Below are positions 49 to 16,008 of a stretch of DNA of 64,000 bases, one piece after another; within the stretch, counting starts at the first letter, position 1; the number at the start of each line of letters is the position of its first letter. A model generated the notes under the pieces. It saw only the letters and a list, made by a program, of their open reading frames with translations, was not told where the DNA came from and did not search any database. The position numbers and the translations under genes are program-made. The stretch is from Desulfobacterales bacterium (GTDB taxonomy: Bacteria > Desulfobacterota > Desulfobacteria > Desulfobacterales > UBA5852): assembly GCA_963674755.2 (NCBI GenBank), contig CAXXVS010000001.1, positions 1,152,001-1,216,000 of the forward strand, in the 5' to 3' direction.

Positions 49-732
49 ATGGTGAGGACGGTTGTGACATCACTTCACAGATGGCTGGCCCGCCTGCGTC
101 AACCGCTCCGGCCCCGCATGATGATCGTGGGGCTTGGTAATCCGGGTGAGGCTTACCGGCAGACCCGGCACAACGTGGGGTTCATGGTGCTGGAGCGCAT
201 CAGTCAGGACCATTCGATCCCGCTGAAACACCGCCGACGCGACAGTCGCTACGGATTCGGTACCATTGCGGATCACGCCGTGGTTCTCGCTGCTCCCCAA
301 GCCTTCATGAACCGCAGCGGCCCGCCCGTCTTGCACTTGTTGTCTTATTACGGTATCTCCGCAAAGGACGTTCTGATCATTCATGACGATATTGATCTTG
401 CTTTTGGACGCTTAAAAATAAAAGAGAAAGGAGGGCATGGAGGCCACAACGGTTTGAAATCAGTTATGGATGCCCTGGGCGGTGGGGATTTCGCCCGCCT
501 GCGTATCGGCATCGGGCGTCCGGCTCGTGGAAGTGATGTCATCGATCATGTACTGAGTCCCTTCAGCCAGGAAGAAAGCGCAACGCTGAAACCGGTACTC
601 GCCCGAGCCAGTGATGCTGCAGTGACCGTCCTTTGCCACGGGGCGAAAGTCGGTATGAACAGGTTTCATCGCAACACCATGAATTCACCCGAAACATCTG
701 ATGGAGGAAAGAATGGACGCAGTATTAAATAA
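49..732 (+). CDS. pth: peptidyl-tRNA hydrolase
   Basis: [47 protein letters not shown] motifs. Start uncertain (49 or 118). Confidence 0.95.
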
Positions 733-2722
733 TCTGCCGCTGACATGCACACTCGTAGGCGTAGCCGGTATTGTGTTTGCCATCCTTCTGGCCGCAGTTG
801 TCAAAGGCGCACCGGCTGGAAACGAAAAAATGCAGGAGATCGCGGGCGCCATCCAGGAAGGCGCGATCGCCTATCTCAATCGCCAGATGAAAAGCATGGG
901 GATTGCCGGTATTATCATTTTTGGTGTTATTTTTGCGACCATGGGTGCCAAAACCGCCATCGGTTTTCTCATGGGCGCGGTGGCTTCCTTTTTGGCCGGC
1001 TACATCGGCATGCGGGTTTCCGTTCTGGCCAATGTCCGCACGGCCGAAGCCGCCAAAAAAGGCATGTCCGCCGGTCTGTCCATGGCCTTCAAGGGCGGTT
1101 CCGTTACCGGTATGATCGTGGCCGGCCTGGCCCTGACCTCGGTTGCGGGCTACTACACCCTGACCCATGACGTTACCGCGCTGGTCGCCCTCGGTTTCGG
1201 CGGCAGCCTGATTTCGATCTTCGCCCGTTTGGGCGGCGGTATCTTCACCAAAGGCGCCGACGTGGGCGCCGACCTGGTCGGTAAGGTCGAAGCCGGTATT
1301 CCCGAAGACGATCCCCGCAACCCGGCTACCATCGCCGACAACGTGGGTGACAACGTTGGCGACTGTGCCGGTATGGCCGCCGACCTTTTCGAGACTTATG
1401 CGGTGACCGCCGTGGCCGCGATGCTCATCGGCCATTTGCTGTTCCCGAAAATTCCGATGGCTACTGAATTCCCGCTGATACTGGGTGCCATTTCGATTAT
1501 CGCTTCCATGATCGCCGTTTTCTTCGTCCGCCTGGGCAGCAGCGAATACATCATGGGTGCGCTCTATAAGGGCATGTTCGGATCGGCTATCATGGCCGGT
1601 ATCGCTTTCTACTTTGCCGCGAATAAATTCATGACGGACATTCCCAACGTTTCCGCTATGAACATTTATTACTGCACCCTGATCGGGCTGGTGCTGACGG
1701 TCGTGATCGTCATCATCACCGAGTACTACACCGGCATCTACGGTCCGGTTAAAGGCATCGCCGACGCCTCCACTACTGGCCACGGCACCAACATCATCTC
1801 CGGTCTGGCCGTATCCATGCAGGCCACCGCGGCGCCGGTTCTGAGCATCTGTCTGGCCATTTTCCTGGCCCACAACTTCGGCGGGCTCTATGGCATCGCC
1901 ATGGCCGCCATGTCCATGCTTTCCATGACCGGTATGGTCATTGCCATCGATGCCTACGGTCCTATCACCGACAACGCTGGTGGCATTGCCGAAATGGCCG
2001 GTATGGATGACAGCGTCCGCGCCGTCACCGACCCGCTGGATGCCGTCGGCAACACCACCAAGGCCGTTACCAAGGGCTATGCCATCGGTTCCGCCGGTCT
2101 GGCCGCTCTGGTGCTCTTTGCCGCCTACGTGATGGAATTCCAGATGCAGGGCGCTGAAAAAGCGATCAAATTTGACCTCTCCGACGTCAACGTCGTGATC
2201 GGTCTGTTCATCGGTGGCCTGTTGCCCTATCTGTTTGCTTCCATCGCCATGAAGGCCGTCGGCAACGCCGGTGGCGCCGTTGTCGAGGAAGTCCGCCGTC
2301 AGTTCCGCGAAATCCCGGGCATCATGGAAGGTACTGCCAAACCGGATTACGGTGCCTGCGTGGACATCGTCACCAAGTTTGCCCTGAAAGAGATGCTGGT
2401 ACCGGCGCTGCTGCCGGTTATCGCGCCGCTTATTGTCGGCTTTCTGCTGGGCAAAGTTGCCCTGGGCGGTCTGTTGATCGGTTCTATCGTGACCGGTGTG
2501 TTCGTGGCCCTGTCCATGACCACGGGTGGTGCCGCTTGGGATAACGCCAAGAAATACATCGAAGACGGCCATCTGGGCGGCAAGGGCAGCGATGCCCACA
2601 AAGCCGCCGTTACCGGTGACACCGTAGGCGACCCCTACAAGGATACCGCCGGTCCGGCCGTCAACCCGATGATCAAGATTCTGAACGTTGTCGCTCTGTT
2701 GATGGTGCCGTTCCTGTTGTAA
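713..2722 (+). CDS. hppA: membrane-bound H+-translocating pyrophosphatase, K+-independent type
   Basis: [46 protein letters not shown] motifs. GGAGG at 703-707 favours ATG 713 over 701. Confidence 0.95.
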
Positions 2723-2753
2723 ACGACTTCGTTCCTCTATCTTGAGCTGAAAT

Positions 2754-2790
2754 AAAGGATTGGCGCAGGTTTGCGCCAATCCTTTTTTAT
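2754..2790 (+). terminator. intrinsic terminator after hppA
   Basis: 14-bp stem AAAGGATTGGCGCA-ggtt-TGCGCCAATCCTTT running into a T-tract. Confidence 0.85.
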
Positions 2791-2818
2791 TGATTGTTTG
2801 CGGCCGCTATGGTATTGT
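2790..2818 (+). promoter_or_regulatory. putative sigma70 promoter of carD-rluD
   Basis: TTGATT-N17-TATTGT with TGn extended -10. Confidence 0.4.
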
Positions 2819-2869
2819 CTTGCGAAATAGATAGAAATATTAGCCATTTTCGCATGAAATGAAAGTTAT

Positions 2870-3415
2870 ATGACCGAGAAAAAAAAGACTCAGAGCCCAA
2901 GCACCAAACCAAAAAAAGGCAAATTCACGGTGGGTGACTTGGCTGTTTATCCGGCCCATGGGGTGGGGGAGATTACCGCCATCGAGACCCGTGTCGTCAA
3001 CGGGGAGGAGCACGATTTCTATATCATGAAAGTGCTCGAAAACGGCATGGTGATCATGATCCCCACCTGGAATGTCGAGTCCGTGGGCTTGCGGGATATC
3101 ATTGATGAGAAGGACATTCCCAAAGTCTATGACGTGATGAAAAATCGGGACTCGGCGGCCGGGGACAACCAGACCTGGAATCGCCGTTACCGCGAATACA
3201 TGGATAAGATCAAGACGGGCAGCCTTTTCGATGTGGCTGAAGTCTTTCGCGACCTCTTCCTGCTAAAACTCACCAAAGACCTTTCCTTCGGGGAACGCAA
3301 GCTTTACGACACGGCGCAGGTCCTGCTGGTCAAAGAGCTTTCCACCGCCAAGAAAGCCGACGAGAAGACGGTTCTCAAGGAAATCGAGTCGCTTTTCAAT
3401 AAAGGCAGCGCCTAA
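2870..3415 (+). CDS. carD: CarD/CdnL family transcription factor
   Basis: FTVGDLAVYPAHGVG N-terminus, WNRRYRE and LSFGERKL motifs. Confidence 0.92.
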   Translation: MTEKKKTQSPSTKPKKGKFTVGDLAVYPAHGVGEITAIETRVVNGEEHDFYIMKVLENGMVIMIPTWNVESVGLRDIIDEKDIPKVYDVMKNRDSAAGDNQTWNRRYREYMDKIKTGSLFDVAEVFRDLFLLKLTKDLSFGERKLYDTAQVLLVKELSTAKKADEKTVLKEIESLFNKGSA

Positions 3416-3429
3416 CGGCCCTTCGCTCC

Positions 3430-4389
3430 ATGGAAGCCTCCGCCGGCTGTTTCCGTTTCGCCGTCTCGGCCTCCGAGGCCGGAAAACGGTTGGATGTCAT
3501 TCTCGCCGGGCATTTACCGGACTGCTCCCGGTCCTACGCCGCCCAGTTGATCCAACAAGGTAACGTTCACGTCAATCAGTGTCCGTGCAAACCATCCTAC
3601 CGTGCCAGGGGAGGCGATACCATCGCCGGAGCGGTGCCGCCGCCCGAGCCGGTGGACATCGTCCCCGAGCCTATCGAGCTGAAGATTCTCTTCGAGGATG
3701 CGGCTCTCCTGGTTATCAACAAACCCCCTGGCCTCGTGGTTCACCCCGCGCCGGGCCACCCTCAGGGAACCCTGGTCAACGCGCTCCTGCACCATTGCGA
3801 CGATTTGGCCGCTTTTCGTGGTGAAATTCGTCCCGGCATCGTGCATCGTCTCGACAAGGATACCTCCGGTGCGCTGGTGGTTGCCAAAACCCCGGCGGCC
3901 CATGAGCACCTGGCGGGCCAGTTCAAGGCCCGATCGGTGCGCAAGACCTACCTGGCCATCGTCAAAGGCGTGATGAAGGTCCCCCGGGGCGAAATACATT
4001 TGCCCATCGGGCGCCATCCGACGGCCCGCAAAAAGATGTCCACCAGGGCGCCCCGGGCGCGTTCCGCCGAAACGCACTATCGGGTGCGCGAGATTCTGAG
4101 GGGGGCAACCCTGCTGGAACTCGATCTGAAAACCGGACGAACCCATCAGATTCGCGTGCATTGCGCTGCCATCCACCATCCTGTCTTGGGCGATAGGGTC
4201 TATGGCGGCCGGCAGAATGCCGAGGTTTATACCCACAGCGGTTCGGCGCCGCTTTCGCGCGAAGCGGTCAGACGCCAGATGCTGCACGCCTGGCGGCTGG
4301 GTTTTTTTCACCCCCTGGACGGACGCTGGCTTACCTGCGAAGCCGACCTGCCGGAGGATATGCAGGCGGTTCTGACCGAACTAAGGTAA
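3430..4389 (+). CDS. rluD: RluA/RluD family 23S rRNA pseudouridine synthase with S4 domain
   Basis: NKPPGLVVHP, HRLDKDTSG, TGRTHQIRVH, QMLHA motifs. Confidence 0.9.
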   Translation: MEASAGCFRFAVSASEAGKRLDVILAGHLPDCSRSYAAQLIQQGNVHVNQCPCKPSYRARGGDTIAGAVPPPEPVDIVPEPIELKILFEDAALLVINKPPGLVVHPAPGHPQGTLVNALLHHCDDLAAFRGEIRPGIVHRLDKDTSGALVVAKTPAAHEHLAGQFKARSVRKTYLAIVKGVMKVPRGEIHLPIGRHPTARKKMSTRAPRARSAETHYRVREILRGATLLELDLKTGRTHQIRVHCAAIHHPVLGDRVYGGRQNAEVYTHSGSAPLSREAVRRQMLHAWRLGFFHPLDGRWLTCEADLPEDMQAVLTELR

Positions 4390-4507: not shown

Positions 4508-6607
4508 TCAGGCGGCGCAGGAATCCTTATCGTAACAGATGCGGCAGCAATTAAGGCAGCGATTGGATTCCCGTGCGGCATCCTTCTGGCTGATCACAAG
4601 ATCGGCTTCCTCAAAGGTTTTGATACGTTCTTCAACGGGCATCTCGGGCATGGGGGTGCGCTTGATGGGGGTGATGCCCTCCACCGACTCGAAAAGCGAT
4701 TCCGGGATATGCTTCTTACGCAGCGATTTAGAGACGGGGGTAACTTCTTCACCACTAAGGAATAGATGAATGGCGCGGGCCGCCCGCCGTCCGCCGCCGA
4801 TGGCTTCCACCACAAGAGAGGCCCCGGTTTGGGCGTCGCCGGCGGCAAAGATATAGGGAATATTGGTTTGGAGCGTTTCCGGATCGGCTTCGATGGTGCT
4901 CCAGCGGGTGACTTCCAGGTCTTTGATCGTGTTTTCCTTTTCCAGGAAGGACACATCCGGTCCCTGGCCGATGGCCGTGATGAGCATATCGATGTCCATC
5001 AGGGTCTCCGAGCCCTCGATCGGTACGGGACGTCGCCGACCGCTGGCATCGGGCTCCCCCAGCTCCATTTTAAGATATTCCAGCTGCTTGACATGGCCGT
5101 TTTCATCGCCGATGGCTTTAACGGGCGCTGCCAGGAAATGGAACTGGACCCCTTCGTGTTCGGCGGCCTCGATTTCCACCATGTTGGCCGGCATTTCTTT
5201 GCGCGTACGGCGGTAAACGATGGAGACTTCATCGGCACCCAAGCGGACGAGGGTGCGCACGCAGTCGATGGCAGTATTGCCGCCGCCGATAACGACGCAT
5301 TTTTTCCCCACCGGAACTTCCTCCGGGTTGTCGCCCTGCTGGTGGCTGGCGAAACGGGTCAGAAAGTCGATGCCGGTGAAGCACCCCTTTAAATCCTCCC
5401 CCTCGGCCCGCAGCTTATAATCCTTCCAGGCACCGACGCCCAGGAAGATGGCATCAAAGCCCTCTTCGCGCAGGGAATCGACGGTGTAATCCTGTCCCAG
5501 GCGGACGTTGTTCTGAAATTCGACACCAAGGTTGAGGATGCCGTCGGTTTCCCATTGCAGAACTTCCTTGGGCAGGCGGTATTCGGGGATGCCGTAGCGG
5601 GTCATCCCTCCCAGTTTGGGCATCATATCAAAAATCTTGACGCTGTGTCCCAGTCGCCGCAGAAAGTAGGCACAACTCAGCCCCGCCGGTCCGCCGCCGA
5701 TGACAGCCACCTTTTGGCCGGTTTCCGGGGCGCAGGGGATGGGCAGCCGTTTGCCGGAGTTCATTTCATAGTCGGCCACAAAGCGCTTCAATTGGTTGAT
5801 GGAAACAGCTTCGTCTTCGATGCCGCGCCGGCATTTGTCTTCACAGGGATGGGGGCAGACCCGGCCGCAGGTTAGCAGAAGCGGATTGCGTTCCCGAATG
5901 GTATGAACAGCCCCCTCGTAGTCGCCCTCTTTGATCTGGCGCACATAGCGGGGTATATCGATTTCCGCCGGGCAGGTTTGCTGACAGGGCGCCAACGCAT
6001 CGTCTTCCTGATTGAAGTGCAGCAGCCGTTCCGACATGGTCCGCACCCGGATGATGTTTTTGGGGCAGGCCCTTTCGCAGGCACCGCAGCCAACACACAG
6101 GGCTTCATCGACCACCGGAAAGCCGTTGGGGCCCATATGCACGGCATTGAATTTACAGGAGGCGATACAATCGCCCTGGCCCAGGCAGCCGATGGAGCAA
6201 ATGCGCTGACCGCCGTAAAGGGCTGCCAGGGCTTGGCAGCTATTGACCCCGTTGTAGTAGAAATGATTGTCGGCGCGGTCGCCGCCGGAGCACTCGTTTT
6301 TGGATAGGAGGGGCTCGGCGCTGCCGGGATCAACCCCCATGACACCTGCCACGGCCACGGCGGATTCCATTCCGGCCACGATGCACACGCTGGGCGGCGC
6401 CTGGCCGTTGACCACCGCCACGGCCGCCGCCGAGCAGCCGGCATAGCCGCATCCGCCGCAGTTGGCGCCGGCGAGGAAATATTCGACCTCCCCGATGCGC
6501 GGATCCTCATAAACATAAAACACTTTCGAGGCAACGCTCAGGACCAAACCGCAAACGGCCCCGATGCCCATTAACGCCATGATCGAAATGTAGACCGGTT
6601 CAAGCAC
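4508..6607 (-). CDS. rnfB: RnfB fused to a GltD/NfnB-like FAD/NAD(P)H oxidoreductase
   Basis: N-terminal TM helix, GANCGGCGYAGC, CVGCGACERACP; then CQQTCP, CGRVCPHPCEDKC, GGGPAG, GGGNTAID, YRRT. Confidence 0.88.
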   Translation of the reverse strand: MLEPVYISIMALMGIGAVCGLVLSVASKVFYVYEDPRIGEVEYFLAGANCGGCGYAGCSAAAVAVVNGQAPPSVCIVAGMESAVAVAGVMGVDPGSAEPLLSKNECSGGDRADNHFYYNGVNSCQALAALYGGQRICSIGCLGQGDCIASCKFNAVHMGPNGFPVVDEALCVGCGACERACPKNIIRVRTMSERLLHFNQEDDALAPCQQTCPAEIDIPRYVRQIKEGDYEGAVHTIRERNPLLLTCGRVCPHPCEDKCRRGIEDEAVSINQLKRFVADYEMNSGKRLPIPCAPETGQKVAVIGGGPAGLSCAYFLRRLGHSVKIFDMMPKLGGMTRYGIPEYRLPKEVLQWETDGILNLGVEFQNNVRLGQDYTVDSLREEGFDAIFLGVGAWKDYKLRAEGEDLKGCFTGIDFLTRFASHQQGDNPEEVPVGKKCVVIGGGNTAIDCVRTLVRLGADEVSIVYRRTRKEMPANMVEIEAAEHEGVQFHFLAAPVKAIGDENGHVKQLEYLKMELGEPDASGRRRPVPIEGSETLMDIDMLITAIGQGPDVSFLEKENTIKDLEVTRWSTIEADPETLQTNIPYIFAAGDAQTGASLVVEAIGGGRRAARAIHLFLSGEEVTPVSKSLRKKHIPESLFESVEGITPIKRTPMPEMPVEERIKTFEEADLVISQKDAARESNRCLNCCRICYDKDSCAA

Positions 6608-6739
6608 GATGAACTCCTTGAGGTCCTATTGCAGGTCTAAACCCATGGGGAGAAGCGGTGCAACGCAACGTATAGCCCACCATAAAACTGATATGCTTTA
6701 CAAAAGCTGCCATGAACCATCTGCCGTCGGTCGGTTTTT

Positions 6740-7315
6740 TTAGGCCATGCCCTTGAATGCATAGAAGGAGAGCGAAACGATGCCCGCCGTAACCAGTGCG
6801 ATGGAGGTGTCCTGCAGAGGGCGAGGCACGCGTGCCAGCAAAATGCGTTCACGAATGCCGGCAAACAGGATCAAAGCCAACCCGAAACCGGCCGCATATG
6901 CAAAGGAGGACACCAGGGTCTGCATGAAATTGTATTCTTTGTCGATATTGATCACGCAGACGCCGAAAACGGCACAGTTGGTGGTGATCAAGGGCAGAAA
7001 AATTCCCAAACCGGCATAGAGGGCCGGGATGCTTTTTTTAAGGAACATCTCTACGAACTGGACCAGGGAGGCAATAACTAAAATAAAGGCGATGGTGCGC
7101 AGATATTCCAGTCCGAGCGGTACCAGCAGATAGGCGAAGATCAGCCAGGTGATAACGCCCGCCAGGACGAGCACGAAGATGACCGCCATCGCCATCCCCA
7201 CGGCCGTTTCCATTTTTTTGGAAGTTCCAAAAAACGGGCAGTTTCCTAGAAACTGCGCCAGCAGGATATTGTTGACGAAGATGCAGCTGATAATCAGAGT
7301 CAAATATTCAGCCAT
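6740..7315 (-). CDS. rnfA: Rnf complex subunit A
   Basis: FLGNCPFFG and LPLITTNCAV motifs; hydrophobic. Confidence 0.93.
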   Translation of the reverse strand: MAEYLTLIISCIFVNNILLAQFLGNCPFFGTSKKMETAVGMAMAVIFVLVLAGVITWLIFAYLLVPLGLEYLRTIAFILVIASLVQFVEMFLKKSIPALYAGLGIFLPLITTNCAVFGVCVINIDKEYNFMQTLVSSFAYAAGFGLALILFAGIRERILLARVPRPLQDTSIALVTAGIVSLSFYAFKGMA

Positions 7316-7325
7316 AGCCGGTCTC

Positions 7326-7955
7326 CTATTTCTTGCCTGCTATATTCATGAAGCATAGCATGAGTCCCAGACAGAGGAAGGCGCCCGGAGCCTGGACGAC
7401 GAATTCAAAAGGCTGGAATCCGGGGAAAAACTTCGCCACATCAAAAATCGGCCCATCAAAAAGGGGGGAGCCCCAGAGGGTCAGCGTTCCCGCGCCCAGC
7501 AGTTCGCGAAGGGCACCTAAAGCCCCTAAGGCCAGGGTGTAGCCGATGCCGATACCCAGCCCGTCGGCCGTGGAATAAATCACGTTGTTCTTGGAGGCGA
7601 ATGCTTCGGCCCTGCCCAGCACGATGCAGTTGACCACAATCAGGGGGATAAAGACCCCCAGATCGAGAAAAAGCTTGTAGGTGTAAGCCTGCATAAGCAA
7701 CTCGACCAGGGTCACAAAGGTTGCGATAACAATGATGTAGCAGGCGATGCGCACTTTTGAGGGGATGACCTTGCGCAACAGGGATACCAAAATGTTGGAG
7801 CATACCAGAACGAACGTCGTTGCCAGCCCCATGCCGATGCCGAACTGCATTTTGGTGGTTACCCCCAGCGTCGGACACAGGCCCAGTACCAGACGAAACG
7901 GCGGGACTTCCTCCCAAAGGCCTTTCAGAAATTCATGGGTCAAGGATTTCGCCAT
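7326..7955 (-). CDS. rnfE: Rnf complex subunit E
   Basis: LGLCPTL and IPLIVVNCIVLGRAEAFA motifs. Confidence 0.93.
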   Translation of the reverse strand: MAKSLTHEFLKGLWEEVPPFRLVLGLCPTLGVTTKMQFGIGMGLATTFVLVCSNILVSLLRKVIPSKVRIACYIIVIATFVTLVELLMQAYTYKLFLDLGVFIPLIVVNCIVLGRAEAFASKNNVIYSTADGLGIGIGYTLALGALGALRELLGAGTLTLWGSPLFDGPIFDVAKFFPGFQPFEFVVQAPGAFLCLGLMLCFMNIAGKK

Positions 7956-7968
7956 GGGGATCTCCCTA

Positions 7969-8562
7969 TCACTTATCTTCGTTAAGTTTTTCTTCGATCT
8001 GGGGTTTTAGCCGCTCGTAAAGTTGGCCTGCCTCTGTAGCGGCCAGGCAGACGGCACGCGAAGTAAAGGTGGCGCCGCTCAAGGCATTGACTTTGCCGCC
8101 GTCTCCGGTAATTTGGATGGGCTGGGTGACGTCCATGCCGTCAAACTGCGCTGCAAATTTCGGATCGGATTTCGCGCGCCCTCCGAGACTGGGGGTTTCA
8201 GAGCTGGTGGTGACGCTGACCCCGTAGATTTTGTCGGTATTCACATCGATACCGACCATGAGCCCCACAGGACCTCCGTATCCTCCCTTGCCAAGGGCTT
8301 CGAGCGCGACGGCCTTGGGTTTGCCGTCGAATTTGGCCACGAAGACAGCAACCTTTTGCTCGCCATCGGTCAGGGTAAAGCGATCGGTCACAGGGTTATT
8401 GGAAGCGCCGGCAAAAATTTTTGCGACCGCCGGCCCCTGGACCAGTTGCAGCACCTGATTCTCGATTTGCTCTTTAGTGCCTTCTTTTACGTAGGCCAGC
8501 AAACCGCCGGACAGCGAACTTAGAAGGGTGAGCACGACCACCATTTTTATCATTTCGCCCAT
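7969..8562 (-). CDS. rnfG: Rnf complex subunit G (covalent FMN)
   Basis: N-terminal anchor, GYGG, ETPSLG, ALSGATFTS FMN-attachment motif. Confidence 0.92.
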   Translation of the reverse strand: MGEMIKMVVVLTLLSSLSGGLLAYVKEGTKEQIENQVLQLVQGPAVAKIFAGASNNPVTDRFTLTDGEQKVAVFVAKFDGKPKAVALEALGKGGYGGPVGLMVGIDVNTDKIYGVSVTTSSETPSLGGRAKSDPKFAAQFDGMDVTQPIQITGDGGKVNALSGATFTSRAVCLAATEAGQLYERLKPQIEEKLNEDK

Positions 8563-8563
8563 C

Positions 8564-9523
8564 TTATCCCACCTTTCCCAGTGCTTTTGGTCTGATTTTA
8601 TCCAGTAGGGGATTGACGAGATTCATCAGTAAAATTGCGAGAAGCACTCCGTCGGTATAAACGCCGATATTGCGTATGAGCATGGTCAGGACCCCGGCGC
8701 CAGCCCCGTAGATCAGCATCGGGACGGGGTTGACCGGAGAAGAGGAATCTTCCGGCAGCAGAAAGAAGGCGCCGATGAGAGTATAGCCGGTCAGAAGATG
8801 GAAAAGCGGGCCGGCATATTGATCGGGCGCGGCCAGGTGAAATATCAATGCCGTCAGGAAGATGCCTACCAGAAATGAGAAGGCGATTTCCCAGCGGATA
8901 TAGCGCTTGGCCATGAGATAGAGGCCGCCGCCGATCAAGCCGAGACCGAAAGCGGTGCCGATCCCCCCGACCTGCCGTCCCAGCAAAAGGTTCAAAGTGG
9001 TAAAATCCGACAGGGCGGACGGACCGAAATTCTTGGAGGCCGTCAGGGGGTAGATGGCATTGAACGAGAAGTTGTAGTTGACCAGGGCGCCGTTGATATC
9101 GAGAAACGCGCCCCATGAGACAGTCAGGATCATCACCGCCACCACGACCGGGTGAAACGGGTTGCTGCCGATCCCGCCGAACACGTGCTTGCCGATCACC
9201 ATCATGATAAAGGTTCCGGTGGCGACGATCCACCAGGGCGTTGTGGCCGGTATCAGCATGGCGAAGAGCAACCCCAGCAGGGCGGCGTTGCCGTCAGCGA
9301 TGGTGATGGCCCGCTGGGTAACCCGGTTCATCATCCATTCCCAGAAAATGGCAGTGGATATGGATAGGGTGATGACGCCTACGGCAGGCATGCCGTAGTG
9401 GACGATACCCAGGGCGACGGCCGGCAGAGCCGCCAGGAGCATGCCGATATGCCGTTCCGCTACATTGCTGCCGTTGTGCCAGAAAGGCGCATGCGAGACG
9501 ATGAACATTTTTTCACTGTGCAT
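8564..9523 (-). CDS. rnfD: Rnf complex subunit D (divergent)
   Basis: GKHVFGGIGSNPFHP and GAFFLLPEDSSSP motifs plus operon position; FMN-Thr motif absent. Confidence 0.85.
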   Translation of the reverse strand: MHSEKMFIVSHAPFWHNGSNVAERHIGMLLAALPAVALGIVHYGMPAVGVITLSISTAIFWEWMMNRVTQRAITIADGNAALLGLLFAMLIPATTPWWIVATGTFIMMVIGKHVFGGIGSNPFHPVVVAVMILTVSWGAFLDINGALVNYNFSFNAIYPLTASKNFGPSALSDFTTLNLLLGRQVGGIGTAFGLGLIGGGLYLMAKRYIRWEIAFSFLVGIFLTALIFHLAAPDQYAGPLFHLLTGYTLIGAFFLLPEDSSSPVNPVPMLIYGAGAGVLTMLIRNIGVYTDGVLLAILLMNLVNPLLDKIRPKALGKVG

Positions 9524-10796
9524 CTGATGCCTCCGCTGCCGTCAGTCGGGAAAGTTCATATTTGGCCAGTCTGATGTACTGAAAGATGGGAATGCGGGCC
9601 ACACACACGAAGCTGCAAAGACCGCAGTCGACACAGGAATAAAGATCATAGAGGTCCGCGCCGTCCTCATACTGCCCCGCTTCGAGAAAGCGTACCAGCA
9701 TGTTGACCGGCACCCGGGCCGGGCAGACCCGCACGCATTCCCCGCAGTTGATGCAGGGGTAGTCCGACACCAGGGAAACATCGGCGGCGTCCTGGACCAG
9801 GATGGCATCGGTATCGGCCTGGATCGGCATTTGAACGTCAAAAATGGCGGAGCCGGTCATGGGGCCGCCGACAATCAGGCGGTCCCTGTCGCCTGTCGTA
9901 ATCCCATGGGCCGTCAGCACATCCGCAATCGGGGTGCCGATCCGGGCCGAAACGATGGTTTTGCGGCCCGTTTTATCGACCAGGGTAACGGTTTTTTCAA
10001 GGGGTACCTGGCCTGTTTCAAAGGCCTTGCCGATGGAGGCTACCGCCTCGGCACTGAAGAAAGCGAACCCCAGTTCTTCGCAGGTTTTACCGGCCGGTAT
10101 CTCACGTCCGAAGGCCTCGTAGATGATGAGTTTGGGGTTGGCCGCGGGGTATTCGGAGGCCACGGCCTTGAGCGCGTCGGCACCGGTATGGCCGAAACCC
10201 TGCACCAGATCACGAGGTACGGCGATGGCCACCTGGCCCACCCCGGTGGCTTCCTTCAAAACATCGATCCCCCGGTTGACGGCATGCATCTCGGACTTGA
10301 TGACAAACTGATTGGTGGCCACCAACAGGTCGGGGTCGATCCCGGCCACCACCAGGGTGTGGATGCCATGGTTCGGCTCTTGAAAGAGGTGCAGGGGGGG
10401 CTTGCCCGGGGTCCCCACCAGCCATTCGGTGAGGTCAGCCAGGGTCGGCGTGAGTTCGCCCGGACCCTCGGCCCATACTTCGGTATCCGCCAGGGTGATA
10501 TCGATGGCGGTAAAATGCTTGCCGAAATCGCCGGCGATGGGACGAATCCCGGCCACCGTACCGGTGACGGTTGAAATGGTATAGGCCGGCCGATCCGTAA
10601 AAGGCGCGATCTTCTGACCGGTCTGTACCGTGTCGCCGGTTTTCAGGGCCAGTTGCGACAGGCGTTCGAGCTTTTCCTCGATTAACAAGGTGGCGGTTTG
10701 CGAACTGCTGACGTGTTGCGGGCCCAATGGGGTTTGGTGAAGCAGTTCGTAATGAAGCGCGGTGGTGGCCGAACGGCTAAATGCATTGTTCTTCAT
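9513..10796 (-). CDS. rnfC: RnfC-like subunit (divergent)
   Basis: GDTVQTGQ...STVTGTV N-domain, GGPMTG, CINCGECVRVCP and CVDCGLCSFVC; NADH/FMN loop degenerate. Confidence 0.8.
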   Translation of the reverse strand: MKNNAFSRSATTALHYELLHQTPLGPQHVSSSQTATLLIEEKLERLSQLALKTGDTVQTGQKIAPFTDRPAYTISTVTGTVAGIRPIAGDFGKHFTAIDITLADTEVWAEGPGELTPTLADLTEWLVGTPGKPPLHLFQEPNHGIHTLVVAGIDPDLLVATNQFVIKSEMHAVNRGIDVLKEATGVGQVAIAVPRDLVQGFGHTGADALKAVASEYPAANPKLIIYEAFGREIPAGKTCEELGFAFFSAEAVASIGKAFETGQVPLEKTVTLVDKTGRKTIVSARIGTPIADVLTAHGITTGDRDRLIVGGPMTGSAIFDVQMPIQADTDAILVQDAADVSLVSDYPCINCGECVRVCPARVPVNMLVRFLEAGQYEDGADLYDLYSCVDCGLCSFVCVARIPIFQYIRLAKYELSRLTAAEASDAQ

Positions 10797-10859
10797 AAGT
10801 TGACCCTTCTGAGCGCAAGGCGGCGAAACACCGTGGAGATTACCGGACCGGTTGCAAAC

Positions 10860-11297
10860 CTATTGGACATGGCATTGCGAACATTCTTTTTCTGTCGGAC
10901 CCGCCCCGATACCGGCGTGACAAGCCGTACACTGTTGATGGAAGGCGTCCGTTTTGGCCGGCAGAACCGTATCCGCAATCTCATCGGCCTCGTGGCAGTC
11001 CAGGCAAAGTTCAGGTTTCGGGGCGTCATCGGCTTGGTTCTTGGGATGGCAATCGCTGCAAGCAATGAGCGCGGCGTCGTCATCGACGGGATGATGATGA
11101 CAATCGTAACAGGAAACCTCGTATCCCACATTATGCTTGGCATGCTGAAACAAAACGCTTCCGGCGGCATTGCGAAACTGGATCCGGATGGGGTCATCAG
11201 GGGGTTTGGAAGGAAAGGCGGCGTAACAGAAAAGACCTACAATGAAGAGAATGACGGCCACGCTGTAGACCAGCTTCAAATTTCTCTCTGAAGTCAT
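10860..11297 (-). CDS. membrane-anchored or exported pentaheme cytochrome c3-like protein
   Basis: Five CxxCH (CYDCH, CSDCH, CLDCH, CTACH, CSQCH), VLFQHAKH c3-type motif, N-terminal hydrophobic helix; AAGGA before ATG 11297. Confidence 0.88.
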   Translation of the reverse strand: MTSERNLKLVYSVAVILFIVGLFCYAAFPSKPPDDPIRIQFRNAAGSVLFQHAKHNVGYEVSCYDCHHHPVDDDAALIACSDCHPKNQADDAPKPELCLDCHEADEIADTVLPAKTDAFHQQCTACHAGIGAGPTEKECSQCHVQ

Positions 11298-11570
11298 AGT
11301 CAATTCGTTCCTTAATATAGAGGTTACAGGTGCAGTGGGCGCGGCAAACTGAATTAATTCCACTAACACAAGGGGTCACTTTCTGGCAAGTGCTTTTTTT
11401 TAAAGGAAAAATTACGTCCAGGCTAAAACTCTACGAAAAACAAAAAATGATGAAGAATGAAAATTAGCGCTAAAACAGGTGGTTAAAAAAGTGGTGAGTT
11501 GCAGCCGTCGATAGAAAACGAAGGAGAAAATGCGGTGGATAGGGCAGCGAACGTCGTCGGCCGTCATGAT

Positions 11571-13277
11571 TCAGCCGCGGCAGACCCCGCAGCGAGTGCA
11601 GCCGGCAGGGGGACAGGCCGGAGATGTCTTGCCGGCCAGGGCACGCTGGTATTCGTCCCACAAAAAGTCCCGTGCGATGCCGCTGTCGATGAAGTCCCAG
11701 GGGAGAATTTCCGTACGGGGGCGTTCCCGGGCGGCGTGGTAATCCACGTCAATGGCACTGCTTTTGAGGGTCTGGCTCCAATTGCCTCCCAGACGGTAAT
11801 GGGCCTCCAGCAGCTCGGCGATGCGTCGGTCCCCGCGGGCGAGAACGGCCTGGACATAACTGGCCCGAATGTTTTCCATCCGGAAGCGGACATTGGCCAG
11901 GGCTTTGAGGTTGTCGCGCAGGTAGCGGGCTTTGGTCTGCAGCGTCTTGACGGTGTCCATGGCCGCCCATTGAAAGGGGGTCGCGGGTTTGGGAATAAAG
12001 GCGTTGGTATGCACGGTGATGGTGCCGATGCGTCGCCGCTGTCGGCTGGCGTCCAGGAAAACGGATTTGATCTTTCGGCACAGCGCCACAATGGCCTCGA
12101 TGTCTTCCATGGTCTCGGTGGGCAGGCCCACCAGGAAATAGAGCCGGAGATTGGGGACGCCCGTCTGTACGATTTTTTCGGCGGCCTGCAGGATGACGTC
12201 TTCCGTCAGTCCTTTGTTGATGACATTGCGCATTCGTTGGGAACCGGCCTCCGGTGCGATGGTGGCGGTCTTGGCCCGGTTTTTCTGCAATATCCGCAGA
12301 AAGTCATCGGAAAGGGCATCGGCGCGCAGCGAGCTGAAAGACAGACGCAGGCCGGTATCCTCAAAATGACGGCAGATGGTGCTGAGCCCGGGGAAATCGG
12401 ATACGGCCGCCCCCACCAGGCCGACGCGGGCGGTGCGCGCCATGGCTTCCCGGATGCTGTTCTCCAGGAAGGCGGGGTCGCGGAAGCGCGGCGGGCGGTA
12501 GACAAAACCGGCGCTGCAAAAACGGCAGCCATGCGGGCAGCCCCGGCTGACCTCGATCAGGCAGGTGTCCGCAAAGGTGGTATGGGCGGTCAAGACCGTG
12601 GAATCCGTTGCGAGGCAGCGGATATCGGCCAGGTACACCCGATTCACCTTCGCCGGTACGCCGGCCGGCGCTTGAACATGAAGCGGCTGGTGGTCCTCCC
12701 CGCCAGCCAGGTTGTAAGCGGACGGTACATAGGCACCTGGCACGTCGTGGGGCGCACGCTCCAGGAACTGCCGCCGGCCCCGGGCCTGGCGGTAGCAGTC
12801 CATGAAAGCCGGCAAGATAGCCTCCGCCTCGCCGATGAGCACCAGGTCCGCGAAGGGGGCCAAGGGCTCGGGATTGAGCATGGCAGCGATACCGCCGATC
12901 ACGACGAGGGGATGGGCGGCATCCCGGTCCTGGGCGCGCAGGGGTATCCCGGCCTGTCCCAGGATCTGCAAGAGATGGGGATAGTCGTTTTCAAACGAAA
13001 CGGAAAAAGCGACCATATCGAAATCGGTCATGGAACGGCCGCTTTCGATAGACACCGGTCGGGCCTCAGGCGGGTCCGGAAGGCAAAAACGTTCGCAAAC
13101 CACATCTTCGAGGTCGTTGAACTGGCGGTAAACCGTCTGGTAGCCGAGGTTGGACATGGCCAGGGCATAGCCCTGGGGAAAAGCCAGACCCACATGGATG
13201 CGGCCGGGCCATGCTTTGCGGATGACACCGGATTCCTCGGGGGACGTGCGAATGGCAGGCGAGCGGCGTTTCTTCAT
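11571..13277 (-). CDS. radical SAM protein with N-terminal B12-binding-like region (YgiQ-like family)
   Basis: MSNLGYQ, SRGCPHGCRFC, APEAGSQRMR motifs. Start uncertain (13277 or 13382). Confidence 0.85.
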   Translation of the reverse strand: MKKRRSPAIRTSPEESGVIRKAWPGRIHVGLAFPQGYALAMSNLGYQTVYRQFNDLEDVVCERFCLPDPPEARPVSIESGRSMTDFDMVAFSVSFENDYPHLLQILGQAGIPLRAQDRDAAHPLVVIGGIAAMLNPEPLAPFADLVLIGEAEAILPAFMDCYRQARGRRQFLERAPHDVPGAYVPSAYNLAGGEDHQPLHVQAPAGVPAKVNRVYLADIRCLATDSTVLTAHTTFADTCLIEVSRGCPHGCRFCSAGFVYRPPRFRDPAFLENSIREAMARTARVGLVGAAVSDFPGLSTICRHFEDTGLRLSFSSLRADALSDDFLRILQKNRAKTATIAPEAGSQRMRNVINKGLTEDVILQAAEKIVQTGVPNLRLYFLVGLPTETMEDIEAIVALCRKIKSVFLDASRQRRRIGTITVHTNAFIPKPATPFQWAAMDTVKTLQTKARYLRDNLKALANVRFRMENIRASYVQAVLARGDRRIAELLEAHYRLGGNWSQTLKSSAIDVDYHAARERPRTEILPWDFIDSGIARDFLWDEYQRALAGKTSPACPPAGCTRCGVCRG

Positions 13278-13283
13278 GGGGGT

Positions 13284-13498
13284 CTGATTTTCCGGGGCCT
13301 CGGCGCCGGTTTCAGCCGGCAGCGTCGTTAAATGGCCGCCATCGGCCGTCCTGACGGGGGGGGACCGCAGGACGCCGAACACGATCCATATCTTTGCTTC
13401 AGCATAACGGCTGCCGGACGAAAGTCAATGCAACCCGCGCGGGAGGTTGGCGCGCAGGGTAATACGTGCCGGCACCGCCGCAAGCCCCGGAAAATCAG
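13284..13498. repeat. 15-bp perfect inverted repeat bracketing the ftsZ-radical SAM spacer
   Basis: CTGATTTTCCGGGGC at 13284-13298 and GCCCCGGAAAATCAG at 13484-13498. Confidence 0.75.
13401..13428 (-). promoter_or_regulatory. putative sigma70 promoter of the radical SAM gene
   Basis: TTGACT-N16-TATGCT on the - strand. Confidence 0.45.
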
Positions 13499-13514
13499 GG
13501 GGGGAGCAGGGCAA

Positions 13515-14699
13515 TCAGTCCGCTTTGCGTCGCAGAAAGGTCGGAACGTCCAGATCGCTTTCATCGATGGCTTCGCTGTCGAAGCCGCCATAGGAGGATC
13601 CCATGCCCCCGCCGGCCACCTTGCGCCGGCGCATGAAGGCCGGTTCGTCGTAATCCACGACATTTTTCAGGTCGTCGGCCGTCACCGGGCGCAACTTGCC
13701 GCCGTAGGTTTCGTCCACGACTTTCACCGGCGCCTCTTCCTTGTCCTTTTCGCCGATTCCGGTAGCAATCACGGTGACGCGCATTTCATCGCCCAGACTG
13801 TCGTCCACCACCGTGCCCCAGATGATGTCGGCCTCTTCGCCCACCTCGTTGTAGATGCGGTCCGAAGCCTCGGTCATTTCTTCCATGGTCAGTTCACTCG
13901 TGCTGGTGATATTCATCAGCACGCCGCGGGCGCCGCTGATGGAGACGTCTTCCAGGAGCGGATGGGAAATGGCCCGTTCGGCGGCTTCCACAGCCCGGTT
14001 CTCGCCGCTGGCCGAACCGATGCCCATGATGGCCATGCCGGCCTTGGACATGGTGGCCTTCACGTCGGCGAAGTCCAGGTTCACCAGACCCGGCATCATG
14101 ATGAGGTCGGTGATGCCCTTGACGGAATGCAGGAGCACTTCATCCGCCCGGCGAAACATTTCCAGCATGGTGGCCTTCTTGGAGGCCAGTCCGCGCAGGC
14201 GGTCGTTGTTGATGGTGATGGCGGTATCGGCCATCTGCTTCAGCGTATCCAAACCGTGATCGGCCTGGCGGGAGCGTTTCTTGCCTTCGAAGGAGAAGGG
14301 TTTGGATACCACCGCCACGGTCAGAATGCCCAGTTCCTTGCAGATTTCGCCAATCACGGGGGCCGCCCCGGTACCGGTGCCGCCGCCCAGTCCGGCGGTG
14401 ATGAACACCATGTGGCTGCCTTCCAGGGCGCTGCGGATGGCATCGGCCGTTTCGATGGCGGCCTCCCGCCCGATGTCGGGATTGGCCCCGGCGCCCAGCC
14501 CTTCCGTCAGGCGTTCTCCCAGTTGAATCTTGACAGGCGCCTTGGAGACTTCCAGGGCCTGGGCATCGGTGTTGGCGGCAATAAATTTCACCCCCTGGAG
14601 ATTCGATGAAATCATGTTGTTAATGGCGTTGCCGCCGGCACCGCCCACCCCGATCACCTTGATTTTGGCCGAGTTTTCATTGTCGACATAGGTAAACAT
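13515..14699 (-). CDS. ftsZ: cell division protein FtsZ
   Basis: GVGGAGGNA, GGGTGTG, NLDFADV, C-terminal DVPTFLR. Confidence 0.98.
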   Translation of the reverse strand: MFTYVDNENSAKIKVIGVGGAGGNAINNMISSNLQGVKFIAANTDAQALEVSKAPVKIQLGERLTEGLGAGANPDIGREAAIETADAIRSALEGSHMVFITAGLGGGTGTGAAPVIGEICKELGILTVAVVSKPFSFEGKKRSRQADHGLDTLKQMADTAITINNDRLRGLASKKATMLEMFRRADEVLLHSVKGITDLIMMPGLVNLDFADVKATMSKAGMAIMGIGSASGENRAVEAAERAISHPLLEDVSISGARGVLMNITSTSELTMEEMTEASDRIYNEVGEEADIIWGTVVDDSLGDEMRVTVIATGIGEKDKEEAPVKVVDETYGGKLRPVTADDLKNVVDYDEPAFMRRRKVAGGGMGSSYGGFDSEAIDESDLDVPTFLRRKAD

Positions 14700-14781
14700 A
14701 GTTCCCCCCTATTCGTGTTACGATGGTTTGGCACGGCGCTGGCCCGATGGGCGCAATACATCGCCGGCCAATGGTTGTCGG

Positions 14782-16008
14782 TTAAACCACGTCCTTGAAC
14801 CAGCGTTTCATCTGGGTCACGATGCGGTTGAAGATATTGGCGTCCCGAATCCGGAACTTCTTTTCGGCCTGGTTTTTGGCGCCATAGAGCACCAGGCCGA
14901 CCCCGGTGGCGTACATGGGGTTGTTGACCACATCCACCAGACCGGTGATGCCCTGGGGTTTGCCCAGGCGGGTCTGCAGGTTGAAAACGGATTCGGCGAT
15001 TTCGGTGGTGCCCTCCAGCAGCGAGGTGCCGCCGGTGAGCACCAGGCCGGACGGGAAGCTGTTTTCCAGACCGGCCCGGTAGACTTCCCGCTTGGCCAGG
15101 GAGAAGATCTCCTCCATGCGCGGTTCCAGAATTTCGCCCAGGATCTGGCGGGGCAGCTTGCGGGCTTCCCGTCCGCCCATCCCGGGCACCTCGATCATCT
15201 CATCGGCGCTGACACTGCTGGAAAGGCAGGTGCCGTAACGGGTTTTGATCTTCTCGGCCTCGGCGTGGGGCGCCCGCAGTCCGATGGCGATGTCGTTGGT
15301 CAGATTGTTGCCGCCCAGGGCCAGCACGAAGGTGTGGCGGATGTTCTTGTCCGAGAAGATGGCCAGGTCGGTGGTGCCGCCCCCCAGGTCCAGCAGAGCG
15401 GTTCCCAGTTCCTTTTCTTCGTGGGTCAAGACGGCTTCGCCGGAGGCCAGGGATTCCAGCACGATGTCACAGACATCCAGGCCCGAGCGGTTGCAGCATT
15501 TGACGATGTTGTGGGCCGAGGTGACCGCCCCGGTGACGATGTGGATCTTGGCCTCCAGCCGGACGCCGGCCATCCCCACCGGGTTCTGGATCCCGGCCTG
15601 TTCATCGACGATATACTCCTGGGGCAGAACATGGATCACTTCGCGGTCCATGGGAATAGCCACGGCCCGGGCCGCATCGATGACCCGCTCCACATCGGCC
15701 TCGGTGATTTCGGGCCCCTTGATAGCCACGATGCCGCGGCTGTTGAAGCCGGTGATGTGGCCGCCGGCGATGCCGGTGTAGACCGAGGATATTTCGCAGC
15801 CGGCCATCAATTCGGCTTCTTCGACGGCTTTTTTAATGGAATCCACCGTGGATTCGATATTGACCACCACGCCCTTGCGAAGCCCGATCGACGGGTGGGT
15901 GCCGATGCCGATGATGTTGACGTCCCCCTGGGACATCTCGCCGACCACACAGCAGATTTTGGTCGTCCCGATATCAAGGCCCACGATCAGATTGCCGCGT
16001 CCCTGCAT
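14782..16008 (-). CDS. ftsA: cell division protein FtsA
   Basis: GLDIGTTK, DLGGGTTD, LTGGTS motifs; position before ftsZ. Confidence 0.97.
   Translation of the reverse strand: MQGRGNLIVGLDIGTTKICCVVGEMSQGDVNIIGIGTHPSIGLRKGVVVNIESTVDSIKKAVEEAELMAGCEISSVYTGIAGGHITGFNSRGIVAIKGPEITEADVERVIDAARAVAIPMDREVIHVLPQEYIVDEQAGIQNPVGMAGVRLEAKIHIVTGAVTSAHNIVKCCNRSGLDVCDIVLESLASGEAVLTHEEKELGTALLDLGGGTTDLAIFSDKNIRHTFVLALGGNNLTNDIAIGLRAPHAEAEKIKTRYGTCLSSSVSADEMIEVPGMGGREARKLPRQILGEILEPRMEEIFSLAKREVYRAGLENSFPSGLVLTGGTSLLEGTTEIAESVFNLQTRLGKPQGITGLVDVVNNPMYATGVGLVLYGAKNQAEKKFRIRDANIFNRIVTQMKRWFKDVV

Follow-up and report, generated by a model that had tools for sequence, protein, structure and literature searches.

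We analysed a 64,000-nucleotide stretch of the genome of a Desulfobacterales bacterium (GCA_963674755.2, contig CAXXVS010000001.1, positions 1,152,001 to 1,216,000; here called the window), which carries a cytochrome-led rnf operon on its minus strand (4508-11297). We found that this operon, as judged from its sequence, encodes the published Rnf2 (Tol2-type) system, which is real, conserved and already named. Cofactor and ion-path residues mark the RnfB, RnfA/RnfE and RnfG arm of the complex as intact and the RnfD-RnfC arm as degenerate. With confidence a little better than even, we read the Rnf2-type complex as an ion-coupled half-Rnf between cytoplasmic NADPH or ferredoxin and the periplasmic cytochrome pool, in which RnfD and RnfC would serve mainly as scaffold. 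What this analysis adds is the loss in RnfD, the evidence that the pump is intact and the finding that the clade extends into Desulfovibrio; jointly these give a testable mechanism.

An Rnf2-type operon

The gene order is cytochrome, rnfC, rnfD, rnfG, rnfE, rnfA, rnfB. All seven genes are intact, with no stops or frameshifts and with intergenic spacings of -11 to 132 bp. The six Rnf subunit homologues that canonical Rnf requires are all present, and for each of them Rnf profile models outscored the Nqr models. The order and coordinates, the Cys pairs of RnfA and RnfE and the SGAT motif of RnfG had been given in the first-pass annotation of this DNA, and all were confirmed. As an internal reference we used the second, canonical Rnf of the same 6.7 Mb genome (C2:602301-607857, locus L175), which has the RnfD Thr and all RnfC motifs.

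The operon was assigned to Rnf2 by the published description (PMC5109826), not by identity to named Tol2 or D. multivorans proteins. In that description, which cites Woehlbrand 2016, RnfB has 700 aa, RnfC is changed and the cytochrome is small and acidic (PMC5109826). The window operon matches it: its RnfB is about 700 aa long and has nucleotide-binding sites, its RnfC has no NADH-oxidoreductase motifs, one gene of the cluster encodes a small acidic cytochrome, and the genome carries a canonical Rnf1 as well. The 'different machine' of the first-pass annotation is thus not undescribed, since the long RnfB and motif-less RnfC are in print as Tol2-type Rnf or Rnf2 (PMC5109826, PMC11887813).

Cofactor sites of RnfD and RnfC

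RnfD (8564-9523) has an intact fold and degenerate cofactor sites. Its AlphaFold model (pLDDT 83; TM 0.81-0.85 to solved RnfD) bears on the fold alone, not on the pocket. Alignment to solved structures places Y158 (codon 9050-9052) at the attachment site of flavin mononucleotide (FMN), Thr153 in Clostridium tetanomorphum and Thr156 in Acetobacterium woodii. The residue aligned with it in the engineered NqrB-T236Y (chain 9ud3), which carries the identical swap, is Tyr236; in that variant FMN is absent and electron flow disrupted (PMC12901251). Because Thr to Tyr at this site has these effects in Nqr, an FMN-less RnfD is expected here. The first-pass annotation had reported the missing Thr, and overlooked what appear to be five further losses (C. 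tetanomorphum numbers): the FMN-ring-contacting Gly237 is Y247 (codon 8783-8785), Glu185 is T190, Asn90 is L90, and the riboflavin ligands Asn124 and Asp248 are H124 and E258 (site numbering, Gly contact and ligands from PMC9588780). Among the best 120 of 3245 RnfD homologues, position 158 was never Thr (Y99, F18, H2, E1), position 247 was Tyr in 119, and no substitute Thr near 158 was conserved.

RnfC (9513-10796) showed none of the three canonical motifs tested: the Gly-rich loop is deleted, and CEPY and YPQGxEK are gone, in agreement with the first-pass claim that the NADH/FMN motifs are missing. It scored 181 bits on TIGR01945 (cut-off 246), as against 497 for the canonical RnfC of the genome, and 28 bits on Complex1_51K, below the cut-off of 31.2; there was no SLBB match. 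Because the fold length is preserved, the domains appear degenerate and not deleted. Two [4Fe-4S] motifs are present.

Distribution of the variant

We compared 166 loci, including the window and the canonical locus of its genome, after two duplicates were dropped. Three sets were pooled. A search of the phylum (301 genomes) gave 168 RnfD matches, of which 80 were used; one genome scan contributed all of its 46 named loci; and from the order to which the named Desulfovibrio loci belong (121 genomes), 40 of 71 strong matches were taken. The sample is non-random and rich in gut Desulfovibrio (with L082-L111 removed, 83 clade loci are left, 6 with Thr and 62 with a cytochrome), and since kin are not independent the clade counts are descriptions, not tests. 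RnfC was canonical in 50 loci, degenerate in 115 and truncated in 1. The canonical loci have Thr (49) or Ser (1) at the FMN site of RnfD, no adjacent cytochrome gene and, wherever RnfB was seen, a short form (46/46).

A tree of RnfA and RnfE (59 rows, one long branch dropped, no trait columns used) placed 37 of 40 degenerate loci in one group with support of 100/100. A subgroup within it (97/92) comprises 22 loci led by a cytochrome gene, the window and D. piger among them. The other three (L067, L074, L075) fall outside the main group and were set aside; they are a separate lineage with A-B-C-D order, degenerate RnfC and Thr retained, which points to an independent loss of the NADH site. The resulting clade holds 112 loci, of which those beyond the 37 on the tree were assigned by motif state only. 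Its FMN-site residue is Thr in 6, Ser in 9 and another residue in 97. A cytochrome gene is adjacent in 91, none of them with Thr and 9 with Ser, and neither residue occurs in any of the 51 loci whose leading cytochrome has 9-11 haems.

The clade includes named Desulfovibrio; the named D. piger loci have Asp for Thr and no RnfC motifs, and RnfC was degenerate in 39 of the 40 loci of the order sample. RnfG of the window and three of eight clade RnfGs tested pass the DVU2794 RnfG model. From this model and its dhcA-rnfCDGEABF layout, Desulfovibrio alaskensis G20 probably belongs to the clade as well. Source names of the close homologues of the window operon were Desulfosarcina sp. and Desulfobacterales.

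At the FMN-Thr position ten different residues occur in the 115 degenerate loci. The equivalents of Asn124 and Asp248, which are essential in A. woodii, are each present in 50/50 canonical loci, and both are retained in 38 of the 112 clade loci; over all degenerate loci the Asn is kept in 73/115 and the Asp is replaced by Tyr in 5. No new invariant polar residue marking RnfD across the clade was found. Because ten residues occur at the site and the neighbouring FMN and riboflavin residues drift, the RnfD FMN site looks relaxed, not re-purposed.

Four loci (L039, L045, L062, L068) combine a long NADP-type RnfB and degenerate RnfC with a retained RnfD Thr and no adjacent cytochrome gene, and this lineage is the best place to seek a partner of the RnfC clusters. 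Two or three degenerate rnf operons per genome were seen in several members of the sampled order (L134/L148/L155, L131/L154, L140/L147, L143/L153, L146/L151, L144/L150), with different cytochromes (5 or 10 haems) and RnfB types. In L030 and L032, which are of one lineage, rnfE appears to be in two pieces, which might reflect a recoded stop, a frameshift or a split gene.

RnfA, RnfE and RnfG

The [2Fe-2S] cysteines are present in RnfA (6740-7315; C26/C114) and RnfE (7326-7955; C27/C110), and RnfG (7969-8562) has SGAT with T165 and belongs to the DVU2794 subfamily (NF045876, 242 bits, cut-off 205). With A. woodii numbers, checked against 9ERI, the Na+-path residues Q85, E88, P107, L108, T110 and T111 of RnfA and R67, L103, V106, N107 and E115 of RnfE are all present, and Y105 of RnfA is Phe. 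In the clade, the RnfA cysteines, E88, P107, L108, T110, T111 and R154 were found in 106/106 sequences and Q85 in 105/106; the RnfE cysteines and its five path residues were found in 105/105, and the RnfG Thr or Ser in 109/109. Y105 is Phe in 85/106 clade sequences and likewise in 30/50 canonical loci.

Structure, simulation and mutagenesis of the A. woodii complex put the Na+ path in RnfA/RnfE, with RnfD only a wire, and Na+ and electron cross A/E together (PMC11889175). Because the path sits in these two subunits and its residues are retained across the clade, loss of pumping, which the first-pass annotation had put forward as 'altered or no ion pumping', appears unlikely.

RnfB and the cytochrome

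RnfB (4508-6607; 699 aa) has a transmembrane anchor and the FdI and FdII domains in residues 1-195, which match canonical RnfB, followed from about 200 to 699 by a flavin adenine dinucleotide (FAD)-NADP(H) module that matches GltD/NfnB/StnC; its best PDB matches include StnC and the NfnA/NfnB proteins. Both Rossmann motifs are present, as is YRR, a mark of NADP(H) preference. By hand count on the alignment, RnfB has Lys at the K170 position of the non-bifurcating StnC, where bifurcating NfnB has Glu. This residue is the ligand of the FAD-proximal cluster (PMC10482914). Bifurcating NfnB is marked by that Glu and by an NfnA partner; RnfB has the Lys, and the operon holds neither an nfnA nor a StnAB gene. 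The module thus appears to be of the NADP(H) type, which bears out and refines the pyridine-nucleotide flavoprotein of the first-pass annotation. It stands in place of FdIII, the domain of canonical RnfB whose cluster has been proposed as the docking site of ferredoxin. Because this docking domain is replaced, the suggestion of ferredoxin as a further input is weak for this copy.

The form of RnfB varies within the clade: 24 loci have a long RnfB with intact NADP motifs, 22 a long one without them and 53 a short one, and in 13 RnfB was not in view. The long form thus makes up 46 of the 99 in view, and the 53 with the short form have no recognisable NAD(P) site in RnfB or RnfC. All four traits that had been taken for one coordinated package (RnfD loss, RnfC loss, RnfB fusion and cytochrome) co-occur in only 37 of these 99 loci. 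In a tree of RnfB N-termini (47 rows; 6 picked loci without the anchor pattern were left out) the long forms make one group (99) and the Desulfovibrio short forms sit among ferredoxin-type RnfBs, from which we infer that RnfB was exchanged at least once. RnfB appears to be the swappable input, and the RnfC loss is what marks the clade.

A further form was seen at L172 (G000:C2:2429189-2434802, minus strand), where an orphan long RnfB of 697 aa, its NADPH motif degenerate, lies together with nuoE-like, DRTGG-like, nuoF/HydB-like and rseC-like genes; the rseC and DRTGG labels are a reading of sequence alone. The locus perhaps provides an alternative RnfB plug, through which a HydBC/StnAB-type bifurcating module would be joined to an A/E pump. 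The same module directly follows a cytochrome-led rnf operon in L184. An association of nuoE/nuoF with long RnfBs of degenerate NADPH motif was found in 1 of 15 loci and 0 of 5 controls (two stretches of about 2 kb), and is not general.

The cytochrome (10860-11297; 145 aa) is a membrane-anchored pentahaem protein of class III (c3-like). Homologue alignment puts its start at the ATG at 11297; a longer open reading frame begins with GTG at 11369. It has one N-terminal transmembrane helix, five CxxCH motifs with five other His, and an acidic isoelectric point of 5.1. Given the anchor, and since c-type haems are matured in the periplasm, it is probably periplasmic. Prediction of an RnfG-cytochrome complex scored 0.01 against a mark of 0.32, which is uninformative either way.

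Proposed mechanism

In the half-Rnf that we favour, the RnfB module would oxidise NADPH at a non-bifurcating FAD with the StnC-type Lys ligand, and electrons would pass from RnfB through the RnfA/RnfE iron-sulfur centre and the RnfG FMN to the periplasmic cytochrome pool. The direct partner of RnfG would be the operon cytochrome or type I cytochrome c3. RnfD and RnfC, without FMN-threonine and NADH/FMN motifs, would be mainly scaffold. As in A. woodii, each electron passing A/E would be accompanied by a cation, and because the two cross together the half-step would be close to electroneutral; charge would be separated when electrons re-enter via Qrc to menaquinone and sulfate reduction. A complete oxidiser could thus run NADPH to Rnf2, cytochrome, Qrc and menaquinone. 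In reverse, the ion gradient would push electrons released in the periplasm by oxidation of H2 or formate onto NADP+ with a long RnfB, or from c3 to ferredoxin with a short RnfB, as in Desulfovibrio. The redox potentials underlying this scheme are those of general knowledge.

The cytoplasm-to-periplasm conduit of the first-pass annotation is kept as the best reading, and several results from G20 fit it. Attempts to show a ferredoxin:NAD+ ion gradient in vesicles failed, and an rnfA mutant had a lower proton motive force (PMC4841214). On formate and H2, rnfD mutants were milder than rnfA mutants (G20 genetics). G20 needs Rnf on H2 and formate, and Ech/Coo were reported in Desulfovibrio without Rnf (PMC4215793). 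A hydrogenase-to-cytochrome-to-Rnf link has been proposed before (cited in PMC4841214).

A wider reading, to which we give rather less than even weight, is that cytochrome-led Rnf from Desulfobacteraceae Rnf2 to Desulfovibrio is one lineage that cannot reduce NAD+. It would be a reversible cation/electron symporter that connects a swappable cytoplasmic plug with the periplasmic c3 pool; the plugs, at the same tentative level, would be the NADPH module, a ferredoxin-type RnfB and perhaps a HydBC-linked RnfB.

Alternative readings

Several observations weigh against the half-Rnf. Both RnfC [4Fe-4S] motifs are retained in 115/115 degenerate loci and an acid at the RnfD riboflavin site (258) in 106/112 clade loci, each more than a pure scaffold needs. 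There is no adjacent cytochrome gene in 21 of the 112 clade loci, including the 6 that keep Thr, and the 9 cytochrome-led loci with Ser are possibly still flavinylated. In one paper the cytochrome was drawn as cytoplasmic (PMC11434368). In G20, rnfD mutants were milder but nonetheless defective (G20 genetics), the decahaem cytochrome gene dhcA was dispensable while rnfCDGEABF mattered (PMC4215793), and its place in the clade does not come from its own sequences.

Much of this would fit a full loop that still runs, in which the pocket left empty in RnfD is reached by the FMN of RnfG or occupied by a flavin bound non-covalently, and riboflavin passes electrons to the RnfC clusters and a higher-potential cytoplasmic partner, with the cytochrome as a side branch. 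FMN-sharing has been proposed from models of Thr-less two-subunit Nqr/Rnf-like complexes (bioRxiv 2024.03.13.584918), and the Tol2 authors expected an RnfC partner, then unidentified (PMC5109826). The NqrB-T236Y variant speaks against it, since flow was disrupted despite the adjacent NqrC; the pocket Gly is also Tyr throughout nearly all of the window's subgroup, and the riboflavin ligands have drifted. We consider the full loop unlikely, but it keeps real weight because dhcA is dispensable, the RnfC clusters are invariant, 21 loci lack the cytochrome gene and G20 was placed indirectly.

An Nqr-like NADPH:menaquinone (or ferredoxin:menaquinone) pump with a remodelled, quinone-binding RnfD is improbable. 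In its favour, NqrB, a homologue of RnfD, binds quinone, the long RnfB resembles NqrF as an entry point for pyridine nucleotides, and pumping could be paid for by the gap in potential to menaquinone (about -75 mV). Against this, Nqr requires the NqrB FMN to reach quinone, and RnfD has gained no invariant polar residue across the clade.

We think it very improbable that the complex is a plain transmembrane wire without ion coupling. This would suit the Phe at RnfA Y105 and the loss of Asn90 and Glu185, once proposed for Na+ binding in RnfD. Mutagenesis puts the path in RnfA/RnfE and not in RnfD (PMC11889175), the path residues there are invariant, and proton motive force fell in the G20 rnfA mutant.

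Decay of the operon, or changes peculiar to one genome, would account for RnfC being the fastest-diverging Rnf subunit (38-50% identity to five same-order loci, as against 72-81% for RnfA), but is refuted by conservation and has a negligible chance of being true: as the first-pass annotation had held, this is a conserved variant, with intact reading frames, the same state in 120/120 homologues and across the phylum, and a place for Rnf2 in the family core genome with constitutive production (PMC5109826, PMC11887813).

Relation to described systems

The papers on Rnf2, in the text consulted, leave the loss of the RnfD flavin site unmentioned and treat Rnf2 as a link of the NAD(P) and ferredoxin pools. 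They place Rnf2 in the core genome and file the Desulfovibrionaceae complex as Rnf1 (PMC11887813), whereas here the loci of Desulfovibrio and the window belong to one degenerate clade. Desulfovibrio dhcA-rnfCDGEABF shares gene order, a leading cytochrome and a DVU2794-family RnfG with the window; it differs in that the cytochrome has ten haems, RnfB is often of the short ferredoxin type and the operon includes apbE. It has been modelled as a ferredoxin:NAD+ oxidoreductase (PMC4215793); an FAD oxidoreductase replacing RnfB and a decahaem partner in Desulfovibrionaceae have also been described (PMC11434368).

With canonical Rnf (A. woodii 9ERI, C. tetanomorphum 7ZC6, A. vinelandii 8AHX) the operon shares the six subunits, the A/E [2Fe-2S] cysteines and Na+ path, the RnfG FMN-Thr, RnfB FdI/FdII and the RnfC clusters. 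It differs in the absent RnfD FMN-Thr and RnfC FMN/NADH motifs, the NADPH module in place of FdIII and the extra cytochrome. Na+-NQR is defined by NqrF and NqrA subunits and the NqrB FMN-Thr; here RnfC keeps its clusters and the Thr is absent. The StnC/NfnB/GltD module has the same two Rossmann motifs, Fer4_20 clusters and Lys at the K170 position of StnC (PMC10482914; 8OH5), but in the window it is fused to a membrane-anchored RnfB and not to a NuoG-like domain.

Rnf-MmcA of Methanosarcina acetivorans has the same cytochrome-led CDGEAB operon, shows no NAD(P) turnover and pumps Na+, with RnfG proposed to reduce the cytochrome (PMC4023990; bioRxiv 2022.07.20.500911). MmcA is another cytochrome, and RnfD and RnfC of that complex are reported to retain their cofactor sites (bioRxiv 2022.07.20.500911). 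By this parallel, which rests on the published work, it may serve as functional precedent for an NAD-independent pump that ends in RnfG and a cytochrome. No purified Rnf2 was found in the literature searched, no open-access paper that we found noted the loss in RnfD or described the RnfC of Desulfovibrio as degenerate, and the available text of PMC12174285 and bioRxiv 2024.05.23.595608 held nothing on this variant.

Genome context

The genome has a single apbE (C1:93850-94710), outside the operon, and encodes QrcABCD, TmcA and a c3-like gene. A scan for promoters and terminators gave chance-level results. The flanks (49-4389 and 11571-16008) hold what we take to be housekeeping genes (peptidyl-tRNA hydrolase, membrane pyrophosphatase, CarD-like, RluA-like; ftsZ, ftsA), together with a TIGR03960-like radical S-adenosylmethionine gene. 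Near-identical short contigs over the cytochrome, rnfC, rnfD and rnfA genes in one metatranscriptome run were not counted as evidence of expression. In the canonical Rnf1 (L175), RnfA is extended (260 aa) and RnfE has extra Cys; in the alignment, L175 and a few canonical relatives have Glu for Leu before the last Glu motif of RnfE, and Ile for T110.

Implications

Rnf2 is core-genome and constitutive, yet its reaction is undefined in print. The donor to Qrc in Desulfobacteraceae has been termed unknown (PMC5109826, PMC11887813), and Rnf2 could be this missing donor. A half-Rnf would address two questions: the source of electrons for Qrc in species with little or no use of hydrogen, and the route by which electrons of periplasmic formate or H2 reach ferredoxin in G20. 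The sequence states mean that the Desulfovibrio-type complex cannot run the ferredoxin:NAD+ path as solved. If the symporter reading is true, the lineage would be the donor to Qrc in complete oxidisers and the H2/formate-to-ferredoxin route in Desulfovibrio, and current metabolic models would be overturned.

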